DNA from: Catajapyx aquilonaris
Taxonomy: Eukaryota
DNA: 57,468 bases
Direction: 5' to 3'
NCBI GenBank assembly: GCA_000934665.2
Contig: JYFJ02002402.1
Coordinates: 1-57,468, forward strand
Made by a program: the position numbers and the translations under genes. How positions within the stretch are numbered: the stretch's first letter is position 1; each line of letters opens with the position of its first letter. Of the stretch, positions 41,301 through 47,600 are shown piece by piece. The notes beneath the pieces are model-generated. The model searched no databases, was not told where the DNA came from, and saw nothing but the letters and a program-made list of their open reading frames with translations.

Positions 41301-41485
41301 TTTTGGGAAGAGGCTTTTAAGAAATTGTGCCTCCTCCACAAAAATAAAAATACAATACAAATAATTCTGACAGTTTTTTTTTTTTTTTGGGAAGGACATT
41401 TCCCAAATGTCTCCAAGAAGCCCCCGAAGAATCAGCTAATGTCGGCTTCCAGGTCTGTTGCTGCCGCTGGACATTCTGCTCGACA

Positions 41486-44400
41486 TCACCGCCTCTTTCC
41501 GCTTCCTCCTTCTGCGCTTCTTCGAGTGATAAATTGCGTCAAGGAAAATCAACTTGTCTTCCATTTCCAATGGTCCCTGTTCCGTAGCAAAAGGATATTG
41601 TTTTTCACGCAAGTCGGCACGGTCGTGTGATCTGTCACGCTCGCGTTGTCTCTCCTTCTCTCGGTAGTGGAGGCTTGGTGATTTTTCCTGCAGAAATAAT
41701 AAACATTTTACTATCGGTATTTGGAATAGTGGAGCAGTCGTGGTAGTATTTTCTGGCAGATGGCGAGTCGATTAAAAAAAGTACTTCCCCCAAAAGTGTC
41801 GACATAATTGTAACATGTTGGAATGATCGCCTCGGCCAAAAAACAACCCCACAATGTGCCAACAGAATGATACATACCCTCACGTAATGATGCTTATCTC
41901 GGTGCTCCGGGGGTTCCCCGTTGGCGTGCATTGGCATGTGCCGAGCGAAATTCACTGTAACGAGGGAGATGCCATGTCAATGCTTTGGAACACAGTCAGA
42001 AGTTTTCCATAGGTCGGTTACACAATACAGGAAACTGCCTGTAAAAGGTACATTGTACTTGACACTTACTACGCTCCTCTTCCTTCTTTCGCTTCAGCTC
42101 CAAGCTTGTTGGTGACTCTTCCAAGCGTTCCTGTGTTAGGTAGGTGGGGGATGTGCAGGTGGTGGTGGTGGTGGTGAAGAGGAAGCAAAACTGTTAGGCA
42201 TGATAATGACTGGTGATGTCCAATTGAATTATTAAAATTCCACTGTGTGGGGAAGGAAATGGCTAAGTCGCTAAAATTTAAAGCAATTTTCCAAGCGCGC
42301 ACTGGATTTTAATTACTCGTAAAATAATTTGGCATCAGGCAAGCGATTGCACATATAGCGTACACCAGACAATGCATTTGACGAACAGTGCTCCTTAGCT
42401 CATTTCCTGTGACACAACCAATAACACCCTTTGGATCAACAACTGTGACCCAAATCCGCACCCTCTTTCTTTCCAGCTTCTTCTCCTTCTTCTCCTCCCT
42501 CAGCTTCTCCTTGCTCTTGGCCCTCTTCTCTTTTCTTTCCGCCTTTTCCGCCGCCAACCTGTCAGCCTCCGCATCAAGCGACAAGTCAAGGTCCCTAGCG
42601 TCTCCTCTGGTACGCTTTAAATCATCATTCTGGAAGATACAATATAAATGGGGACCGCCCAACGCTTATTAAGTACATCCAAGCCACGGACATGTGCTCC
42701 CCCTCCTTCCCTGCTGGCCTACATGTTTTTTAAAATATAAAAAGCCAATCCAAATAATAACCCTTTTGTCCCCCCCAAATTTTGCCTATACAACACACAC
42801 CAAATGGATTATTGTCATAAGTCCAAGCATCATTGCCAGTAAAAAAATTTCAGAGTATACTACTTGTCAAATCATTTGCAGTGATGTTAAGACAAAGCAA
42901 CATTAAAGAAACGATTTGAGATGGTTATGGCTAACATCACAAATGAGGTACCGTTATTAATAATTTTGTCGAATTTTCCTTTAAAGATGGGCGTTAAATA
43001 CATCACACAATGCCAATGGAAATATTTAAAATTGAGGAATCTCATTGAATTAATGTGTTCCTTGACTGTACTCCGTAACACATACCAACCTGTCTTTCCA
43101 CGACTAATGTTCATGTTTCAATCAGTTCTAACGTCCAGATAATCAGCATTACTCCCTGATGGTTGGAATTTTGTGTTCAGATATTGGGCTACTTCTGTCA
43201 AATGTACGTGAAATTAACACTGGCAGTCAATGAACACACCGGCCACCAATTAATTGCCAACCATTTTCCGTAACGCCTTTAAAAAAAAAAAGCATTACAG
43301 AAGGTTGTAAACACAAACACTGGCAATGAAGCTTGTCCGTGCCAAAAAAAGAGAATAAAACATTAAACCCCATAATTCACCCCCTCTAAACCGGGCCAAC
43401 CTTACCCTAGACCTCTGGTACCAGTATGATGCCACGGTTCTCACACCCTGGTTCGTGGCCACCTTATGGTATGCAGCAGAGACACACACCGGGGGAAGAG
43501 GACCACCAACCACCCCCATCGCTTTCACCGCCATAGACTTGTCGCCTTCCCCCATCTCTCTCAGGAGCAGAAGAGCAAAGAAGAAGCAGATTTTCGGATT
43601 GTGTAGGGGGAGAAACATGGACGGATCTTCTTCAGAGTTGAAAACCGCTTCCAGACGTGTCGAGGGGGGCATCCAGCAGGAATCACCGGAAGGTGCAGAC
43701 GTTGGGTGCCAGGTTTACAAAAAGCAGTGGAAGACCAATGAATGAAGGCAGTGGGTGCGGATCCCACATTCAGTCCGACTTATTAAGGCCATATTTTTTC
43801 AGCACTCCTCACCAATGCACTGCTGCATCTTCCAGTCTTCTCTTTCTCTCAAGATTAATTTCCAGTCCATCTCACTGAACCCGAAATGTGAGATTTCTCT
43901 CTCTCTTTATATGACCCGCATTCTCGACTAATTGCCACTAAAACCCGTAAACACGCAACTGCATTTTTTTTTTCCAGCGCTTTTTTTAAAAGCAAAGAAA
44001 CTGCAAACTAGCTATTGCCTTTAAAATCTTCCAGCATCTGGTTCGGCTAATTCTGGACTCGACCTCCATATTCACACACTGTAACCAGGGGGCGCCAGCT
44101 CCTCCGCATTTTCCTGTAACTTCCATGATTCGGCATATATTTTTCCTGAGACTCGCTTCTCGCTCTCTCCATTCCCTCAGACCAATTTTGCATATTCCTC
44201 ACCATCTCCTCACTTCAGACTCTCCAGTATTCCTCACCATCCATACATTTCCACCATCCTCCTGACATCTGCCATGATTTCGGTCTGAAGATATCCCCTG
44301 ATTTTCAGAATATTTTTCCCAAGTAGAAGGAGTAGTAGTAGTAGTAGAAGCGTAGGACCCCTCCACCTCTTTCTCATCATCAACTAAAGCCAGTCGCGTT

Positions 44401-44612
44401 GGGGGTGGTCGAACATTCAATCGGTTGGCACATTACGCGAAGTGTGGCTTAGAGTGGTTGGTTTTTTGTGGGGGGCTTTTACGACACCCGGATACTAACC
44501 TTCGATGAACCAGCTTGCTCAAGTTTACGCCGTTTGATGTCTGAAAAAGAACCAGAAAGAATAGACGTCAGCATATCTGACAGTGAGAGAGATTGTGCTG
44601 TACACAACTGCA

Positions 44613-44667
<55 letters not shown>

Positions 44668-47600
44668 TCATACCCCGTTATCAGCCATCGGCTCTTTAGG
44701 GGGGAAGTTTGTTTTGACTGGAACTCTTTGCTTTCATTTTACTGTGCTCTTTGGGATAGGATAGGGACGGAAGGAAGCGGCTGTGGCCTATTAATTACGG
44801 AAGCAACTCCGGAATTTTCCTGGAAGGACCGTGGGAAACCACAGAAAACCACGGTCAGAGTTGCCGGCCTCGGGATTCGAACCCAGAACCTCCCGATTAG
44901 CAGTCGGACGCCTTATCCACTATGCCAACCTGCTTCGGTCGCACAACTGCAATATACTACTCAAGAATGAAAATCTACCTCTGTCAAACTCCGGGGGCTC
45001 CTGACTTCTCCTCCGAAGGTCAGACCCACCGCTACCAGTGGATACTTCGCTGGCCTCCCTCTCGCGCTCACGATCTTCCTGCTGTTGTAGGTAAGAAAAG
45101 TGTGTTGGAAACCTTTTTCCACAGAGCAACAATTTGGTTTCAATGCTTTTCCAATCAACTGTGATCTTCTGCCTAATAATATGCATACTTTGCTCACATT
45201 GAAAGTAAAGTAGCCCATACCTTTTGAATTAATCTTTCCTCGGCTCTGAGCATCTTCTCCTCCCTTAGCCTCTGCCTCTCCTCACGTTTCTCCTTCAATC
45301 TCTTCTCCGCGGCCTCCTCCTTCTTTGATTTGGCATCCGAGTCTCCATTTCCTCCTCCGCCTCCTCTGGTCAGACTGATCCTTTCTTTCTCCAGCTTGTC
45401 TTTTGTGCTAAAAGTTAAGAGTAGATTACATTGCATGGTAAGATGACTTGAAAAAAAAAAAACGAAGTTGGCGTAATCATGAGCAGTTACTTCGCAACGG
45501 GGAATACAACTGTGATAACAATCTCATTCAGTTGGGCTCAGGTACAATGATGAATCCGAAAAGCTCGGCACAAGAACAAAGGGTACGTGAAAAATTAATA
45601 CACCCTTTCTACAGTTTGCTGCCCTACCCTATTCGTATGCAATAACAGCAAGCACTCAAGCACATGCAATTAGCAAAGCCAACAGAAAAATAACAGCAAG
45701 AATCAGCAAGACATGAATATTCAGTCAATAAATGCATGCAACACTCATGCCAAGTTTCTAAAATAACACACTACACTAATTCACTAACAAACTCCCTGGA
45801 ACCTTAACTACCATTGCTCGTATCTCAGGAGTATGTAATATTAATAATGTACATAGGAAACGTGAGTCTGTTAGTATGAGCATGCAATGAAGCGTGTGAT
45901 CCTGGAACTATGCTTACCTGACGTAATCACATTTTCAGCCTTAATGGCGTGTTTAGAGGTTGACTTTTCCGGCAACCTAAGAACGTTCTACCATTTAGGA
46001 CCGAAACTGCTCCTACACAGCAATACTTTGAAATAGCTCTGCAGACATCGCGAATGTTCCCTTCCTTCATTCTGCATGCAGACAGCAACTTTCACTGTCG
46101 GAAAGTTATTATACCATTGAGCACAATTTTAATGCTAATAATAGAGAAGATTACGATGAATAACTGACCTCATGAGTACTGGAATCTTCACCTTTTCCCT
46201 ACCCGATACCTATCATTCTGCTTTCCATTTAGGCCGTCCCATACTCTAACAAGGTGGTCCAGGTCTTTTTGGTGGCACGAAGGCAGTCTCAGCCAGAACT
46301 CACTAATATTGGCTTATGTGGATCTTGTCGGGTTCTCTTCCTTTTTCTGCCCCACTTGTGTGAGTGTGTGTAAAAATTAAGACGACAGACTACCAAAAGC
46401 CTTAGGAGCACTTTATACATGCCACAAAAATAATGAATTCTAACTTTTGGCCTCAACTCGAGTTCATCCAATGCTGAAACTGTCATGTGACAATTTCAAT
46501 GTTTTTCAAGCATTGCATCAATTTGTCACTTTGAGCTTCGAAGATGCTGCCAGCATATCTGGAGAAACATTGACAGCATGGGGCTTTTCTTGATAAAATG
46601 CTGTGACGTGCTGCATGATCACAATGCCTGGTCACCATTGTTTTACTGGCAGATGTGTTGAAACACTCATACATCATACTAGGACCTTCCTACACAGAAT
46701 TCTTGCCGTGTTGGATGCAGTCCCCTATGACTAACTTCAGATGTGGAGACCAAAACACCAAGAAACACATCCTGAACCTCTGATTGGCCATAATTGAATG
46801 TTTCATAAGCCGCATTCTTATGGGTGACCTTTGGCCAGGAAGTTTCCTGGTCATGCCCAGACACACATCTACTCTCCGATTCGCACAAGCCTGAACCTTT
46901 TCAGGTATATGCATATGCCAGAGGGGGTGAGCCGCCGCAAAATTATTCCCCGGTAACTCTGGTTTTCTCGACGAAACAGTGCTGGTACATGTAATTCGAA
47001 TGTCTAATTATCATAGGCAGCCCATGCGGGAGCTGCAGCGCTAAACAAACTGCACATTTTGTTGTGAGAAGCGGTATGGATATCCAAAAAAGGTTCCCTT
47101 ACGCGATTCGGAGAGTATTATCAGCCTGTAACTCAGACCTGCGTGAGCATGCAGGACTTTTGCGAGTGGAAGCCTCGAACGCTTCCCGAGTGAACTGACA
47201 CTTTTGATTTCTGGCTACATCACCACCATTGTTGTCACCATCACCCGCATGACCATGCAACTGACCTGCAACTATACTCCACATGCAATACAAGTTTCTA
47301 TGATTGTATTCATGCAACAGCCAAAATGAGAATGGTGTGGATGATTGCACCTGCTACAAGCCTGTACCACTAGGACTACAAAACTACGTGTCTTGACTGA
47401 AGTGAAAGGATGTCACAACCCAAAACCAGGAAAGGAGAGGCTAGCTTGCAACCTGAAGCAACGGTTTTTTCCTGTTCAAATTTTAAATGATTCTGTCGGA
47501 CTGCTTCACACGTGACTTGACGTTTATTAAATCTTCACGATTTTGAGACCATGAGCATTGCGGACTGTGTGCGGTGCAATTTGAAAGCCCACTACTTTAT

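Follow-up and report, generated by a model that had tools for sequence, protein, structure and literature searches.

The terminal THOC2 intron of Catajapyx aquilonaris is a spliced minor-class intron that is unlikely to act as a C-terminal switch

The 3' part of the THOC2 gene of Catajapyx aquilonaris contains a candidate U12-type AT-AC intron whose incoming frame runs on without a stop codon. The question raised by this locus is whether the intron is real and, if so, whether its retention serves to exchange one C-terminus of a THO/TREX component for another. We analysed a stretch of 57,468 nt (contig JYFJ02002402.1 of assembly GCA_000934665.2), hereafter called the window.

The gene was identified from its domains. 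In the region from 48 to 55 kb, 9 of 14 scanned ORF pieces matched Pfam THOC2_N, Thoc2 or Tho2, eight of them above the curated cut-off, and the order THOC2_N, Thoc2, Tho2, followed by a charged low-complexity C-terminus, is that of THOC2/Tho2 orthologues. All of the best 120 of 934 database matches are named THO complex subunit 2 or harbour its domains, and insects stand at the top of these 120, at about 83% over the query exon. The modelled part of the gene (55039-41486, minus strand) comprises 23 coding exons and 22 introns and codes for 1516 residues with a single terminal stop, the 5' first exon(s) lying outside the model. Many of the introns are short; 21 are of the GT-AG type and the last one is AT-AC, direct contig joints backing only the last three of the 22. 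In a quick tree of 21 rows, the THOC2 protein of the window groups with those of Daphnia and insects, yet does not fall within the clade formed by 12 winged insects (SH-aLRT 100); by this placement, its source would probably be a wingless hexapod or a crustacean.

The last coding intron (41598-41526, minus strand, 73 nt, phase 2) separates the penultimate coding exon (41599-41687, 89 nt, ending in phase 2; the contig piece described below covers 41599-41686) from the coding part of the last exon (41525-41486, with TGA at 41488-41486). Its 5' splice site, ATATCCTTTT (41598-41589), fits the U12 consensus (A/G)TATCCTT (PMC3291851), and its acceptor AC lies at 41527-41526. The branch site, TTCCTTGAC (41546-41538), is of the TCCTTRAC type and leaves 13 nt from the branch A to the intron 3' end, as expected for U12 introns, for which a passage of PMC3584512 gives an optimum distance of 11-13 nt. 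The RTATCCTT donor and the TTCCTTRAC branch motif each occur once on the minus strand of the window, and the composite signal is expected about 0.0005 times per window from base composition. Two further U12-like donors, GTATCCTT, are found outside THOC2 on the plus strand, at 914 and 39597; neither has an exact TTCCTTRAC branch motif nearby.

Splicing of this intron was observed directly. A contig of the public run X1, a single run whose kind is not on record, joins 41599 to 41525 without positional ambiguity, skipping exactly 73 nt that read AT..AC at their ends on the gene strand. This junction contig, 458 nt long and at depth 54, covers four exons and leaves out 115, 190 and 73 nt between them; the two GT-AG introns upstream of the U12 intron are thus removed too. 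It continues without a joint from 41525 to 41296, where its coverage of the UTR ends. The initial annotation had proposed the intron from its donor, branch site, AC acceptor and length, and both the sequence and the contig joint bear it out: the terminal THOC2 intron of the window is a real, spliced minor-class intron. From established knowledge, we infer that it is removed by the U11/U12/U4atac/U6atac machinery. No contig of run X1 lies inside the U12 intron, and two upstream GT-AG introns carry contigs at a depth of about 9, but contigs of this run are unable to show the absence or the level of retention. Use of an AG acceptor lying 6 or 9 nt inside the last exon would preserve the normal frame and so does not open the basic one; neither acceptor is used in the contigs of run X1. 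A loose contig end at 42095 has no match in the window and was taken as unrelated.

The window intron has the position, phase and class of the terminal minor intron of mammalian THOC2 and is thus the orthologue of human THOC2 intron 37, which precedes the last of 38 exons and is described as a U12 AT-AC intron in a passage of PMC12547740. Its donor context, including three exon bases, is identical at 12 of 12 positions to that of the mouse Thoc2 entry in a supplement of PMC6717393. These two sources establish the vertebrate 3'-terminal U12 intron to which the initial annotation had pointed, and the second, through its Minor Intron DataBase tables, supplies the entry whose lookup it had proposed. 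In addition to the AT-AC class, the window and the mammals share a K-H junction before a short basic tail. In contrast, the intron measures 73 nt here, as against 463 nt in mouse and 476 nt in human in the supplementary entries taken as this intron. Mammalian THOC2 also has a second listed minor intron, whereas no other U12 donor is found among the 22 modelled introns of the window; this second intron was either lost or converted, or it lies upstream of the model. Passages of PMC12956336 and PMC5435706 name Thoc2 among minor-intron genes, and supplement file 5 of PMC6717393 holds a Thoc2 row with a single value, 0.24. We found no report of a minor intron of arthropod THOC2 or of a translated retained form in the titles and abstract starts of the papers listed for THOC2. 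The whole word 'THO' is absent from the main text of PMC3291851, which deals with insect U12 introns, and THOC2 gave no match in the searched supplement files of PMC4066798.

We then turned to orthologous insect loci. A pattern scan of metagenome contigs yielded 19 loci, of which 11 were rejected because their upstream translation is not THOC2-like. The other eight (L003, L007, L009, L010, L012, L013, L015 and L016) are insect THOC2 loci, corresponding to six distinct sequences and about three lineages, namely termite-like, ant-like (both judged by their tail peptides) and one other. All eight share the phase-2 position and the ATATCCTTT donor with the window. The acceptor of L016 is not within the locus, and the seven loci with a downstream exon all have a U12 branch site, an AC acceptor and an HRR..KRR tail, as in the window. 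Their introns are far longer (712-1113 nt in these seven, versus 73 nt), and their spliced tail has 10 residues rather than 13. At the THOC2 stop of the window (41488-41484, minus strand), TGA is followed by TG, giving a TGATG stop-start overlap. The same TGATG is present in all seven last exons, those of every locus listed above except L016; the frames downstream of it are not alike among the window and the insect loci.

Stored protein sequences gave a broader picture of the ends of THOC2. Among 196 of them, 82 have a spliced-type tail, 27 read through at KQYP and 87 have partial or other ends. The spliced-type tails read HRR..KRR in insects and HHKSS.KHR in vertebrates, and the spliced end of the window belongs to this group, matching the insect ends of the HRRSxEGKRR type. 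Judged by such protein comparisons, the conserved end of THOC2 is the spliced one, of 13 aa in the window. KQYP is what the U12 donor spells when translated; read-through models from vertebrates and insects break at this point, as does the window. Beyond it, the 27 read-through tails (6-62 residues) have in common only QYP plus a hydrophobic residue, with at most 5 K/R in 10, and some of these models may be chimeric. That gene finders would mis-annotate such an intron, as had been anticipated, is illustrated by Photinus and Zophobas, whose 'hypothetical protein' models read through the intron and end in QYPF.., while isoform-named models of the same species carry the spliced tail. Eleven of the 27 read-through proteins have RefSeq-style isoform names (from four lamprey species, Apis laboriosa and Petaurus), nine of them from lampreys, and such names may mean that unspliced or extended forms are backed by RNA.

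Two groups of read-through proteins deserve mention in their own right. The nine proteins from four lampreys (P0047, P0184, P0185, P0189, P0190, P0192, P0193, P0195 and P0196) have a 19-aa read-through tail at the U12 intron; lamprey THOC2 thus comes as several named read-through isoforms beside spliced ones, and is the best place to seek real retention. In a click beetle and firefly group (P0044, P0062, P0076 and P0123), about nine residues after the U12 donor are shared (QYPFNR.KY) and the stop sites differ, which suggests that intron sequence is conserved beyond the donor.

A different kind of alternative end appeared further upstream. Reading through the GT-AG donor at 44499 of the window (44499-44479, minus strand) gives a 6-aa end, VSIRVS, followed by a stop. 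Ten of the 196 stored proteins (from thrips, beetles, a termite-cluster member and sandflies) end at the matching donor, eight of them with a 6-aa VSIxVx, a likeness that exceeds the donor consensus. From this likeness, VSIxVx may be the end of a conserved short isoform of THOC2 that lacks about 150 residues at its C-terminus. A long 3' UTR of that isoform would agree with the contigs, at a depth of about 9-10, that lie in the intron at 44499 and in the one after it. This lead is possibly a better one than the U12 finding. Another THOC2 intron, 44978-44541, contains a tRNA-Ser(GCT) predicted by ARAGORN at 44862-44933 (minus strand), after which come a repeat-like stretch and, near 44615-44665, an (ATT)n run; it may be a tRNA-derived SINE.

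What would retention of the U12 intron produce? The initial annotation had given a 13-aa spliced end and a 54-aa retained end with a basic patch, and both are exact on the minus strand. The retained reading continues to a TAG at 41438-41436. Its basic patch, with 9 K/R in 10, comes from the 33 nt with which the last exon begins (41525-41493), read in a shifted frame that only a retained transcript would encode. In none of the eight orthologous loci is the frame open through the intron: it stops after 5-9 residues (codons 6-10) in 8 of 8, the reverse of the stop avoidance for which the initial annotation had suggested looking in aligned introns. Such stops, seen here in distant relatives, are one of the two observations that it had named as jointly refuting the switch, negligible retention being the other. 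The shifted frame of the last exon contains 1-3 K/R in 10 in 7 of 7 insect loci and is devoid of a basic patch, and none of the 27 read-through tails exceeds 5 in 10. Since all eight loci stop early and the read-through tails are alike only at QYP, neither stop avoidance nor the basic patch is shared among the sequences compared, all of which are distant from the window species. Compared with longer proteins, the 83-aa read-through piece had no homologue at E<=10 among 93 candidates, which is weak evidence.

The open frame itself is readily obtained by chance. When the intron was shuffled 100,000 times with donor, branch and acceptor fixed, it remained free of stops in 26% of cases. The 21 GT-AG introns of the same gene provide an internal control: their first 25 codons are open in 4 of 21, and one, the neighbouring 190-nt intron (41877-41688, minus strand) that is skipped in the junction contig, has a stop-free incoming frame throughout. 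Thus, an open frame through a 73-nt intron is common by chance, as expected of a short intron.

It is harder to put the basic patch down to chance. Synonymous recoding of the 13-aa tail gave 9 K/R in 10 without a stop with P = 0.0001 under uniform or core codon usage, P = 0.0006 under local codon usage and P = 0.003 given the purine content of these 13 codons (32 of 39 nt), for a feature that was chosen after being seen. Elsewhere in the coding sequence, the same shift gives two stretches with 7 in 10, both over glycine runs, and the other shift gives one with 9 in 10. The glycine codons of the region are GGA in 19 of 38 cases, and the start of the last exon contains four GAAG words. The patch would then be a GA-rich exon, made of GGA glycine codons and GAAG repeats, read one base off. 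Purine-rich enhancers in AT-AC splicing are reportedly the subject of one study. The GAAG repeats may serve as a splicing enhancer; since elements bound by SR proteins help U12 splicing, according to a passage of PMC3584512, selection for an enhancer could yield the patch as a by-product. Moreover, an in-frame stretch with 7 K/R in 10 is already present in the THOC2 protein, so an added NLS looks redundant. The 54-aa basic tail, absent from every distant relative examined, is probably a coincidence as far as these comparisons indicate.

It had also been argued that the retained form would escape NMD. This part is plausible, since the contig shows the UTR free of joints as far as 41296. However, passages of PMC4066798 report that unspliced U12 transcripts of human cells are kept in the nucleus and targeted to the exosome, and escape from NMD therefore does not imply translation. 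The same passages put the retention of human U12 introns at about two times that of the U2 introns beside them. According to PMC6717393, in the parts that bear on mouse and human, 467 of 722 minor introns show no retention in normal mouse tissues, and shorter minor introns are more often retained in both species. Mouse Thoc2 gave no match in a supplementary table of that paper that apparently lists 150 consistently retained minor introns.

Taking these results together, we consider it likely that the minor spliceosome removes the intron constitutively to produce the conserved tail, and that the 54-aa reading is a latent frame. This reading builds on the splice signals, on the observed junction and on the match in position and class between insects and mammals. 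An ancestral terminal U12 AT-AC intron of THOC2 would have shrunk here to 73 nt; the minor spliceosome would excise it and join the short last exon, thereby giving the conserved basic C-terminal tail. From established knowledge, unspliced molecules would mostly be slow-splicing intermediates, nuclear or degraded, and could at most limit THOC2 output. Such a limit on host-gene output would resemble the minor-intron switches regulated by U6atac, a model that, as outlined in passages of PMC3728624, controls the amount of mRNA and not the choice of a protein tail.

Of the other readings, the one that fares best shifts attention from the gained sequence to the lost one, although we regard it as doubtful. 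Mis-splicing of the intron in animals at large, by retention or by use of another 3' site, would generate an NMD-insensitive THOC2 without its basic tail; the replacement sequence would be unimportant, and minor-spliceosome activity would tune TREX through the lost tail rather than through a gained NLS. Insects and vertebrates do share the position of the intron, 8-13 codons ahead of the stop, and its class, but U12 introns are position-conserved generally (passages of PMC3584512), so no special role is needed. In one patient described in PMC12547740 (passages), the THOC2 +1A>G variant moved the acceptor by 7 nt and replaced the tail; NMD escape is predicted and the variant is presumed causal. 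Deletion of exons 37-38 of mouse Thoc2 is hypomorphic (passages of PMC10853216). Human THOC2 uses alternative U12 3' splice sites after RBM41 knockout (passages of bioRxiv 10.1101/2023.10.12.562036 and PMC11039992) and has an alternative-3'-site (CAT7) row for normal tissues in the supplement of PMC6717393; however, alternative U12 3' sites are possibly splicing errors (PMC3584512, same passages), and the literature examined gives neither regulated retention nor a protein product. We rank loss of the tail above gain of an NLS because it is the spliced tail that is conserved and because disease has been linked to its damage. The general proposal that, from arthropods to mammals, minor-spliceosome activity decides by NMD-insensitive retention or by use of another 3' splice site whether THOC2 carries its basic tail, the stop-free 73-nt intron of the window adding a 54-aa tail with a 9-in-10 patch, appears to us just as doubtful as this reading.

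Still less probable is a switch restricted to this lineage, in which the retained RNA would be exported and translated and the polybasic 54-aa tail would alter the localisation or RNA binding of THOC2. The open frame, the improbability of the patch under synonymous recoding, the very short intron and the lack of a downstream joint as far as 41296 all speak for it. They are outweighed by the lack of conservation in the eight loci and the 27 read-through proteins, by the frequency of open frames among shuffled introns, by the equally basic shifted-frame stretch elsewhere in the gene and by the post hoc choice of the feature. Such a product would be reminiscent of splicing-accessible coding 3' UTRs, in which a frameshift near the last exon gives an NMD-escaping new C-terminus from the 3' UTR; that system, in passages of PMC7392665, involves penultimate-exon splicing in mammals and proline-rich destabilising tails, in contrast to U12 retention and a basic tail predicted here from sequence alone. 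Thus, the functional switch to a basic tail put forward by the initial annotation is unlikely. Finally, the idea that the spliced contig stems from a processed copy in DNA and not from mRNA can be dismissed with near certainty: no kind or library is recorded for run X1, but the run contains a fraction of 0.51 of the sampled words of the stretch, near the exon share, its contigs total only 32 Mb, its exon pieces have no differing letters from the window, three introns are skipped at splice signals, and a processed copy would itself still reveal use of the junction.

The spliced intron extends the known minor intron of THOC2 to arthropods, a result of small but practical value. Gene models that end in KQYP.. 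at the U12 site are often read-through artefacts, and for this gene the 13-aa spliced tail is the right C-terminus. Were the switch true after all, so small and stop-free an intron would offer a convenient test case, and the minor spliceosome's activity would be tied directly to the tail region with which THO/TREX binds nucleic acids, a region whose loss causes disease in people and R-loop accumulation in mice according to passages of PMC10853216. The choice of tail would then constitute a protein-level link from the minor spliceosome to TREX.
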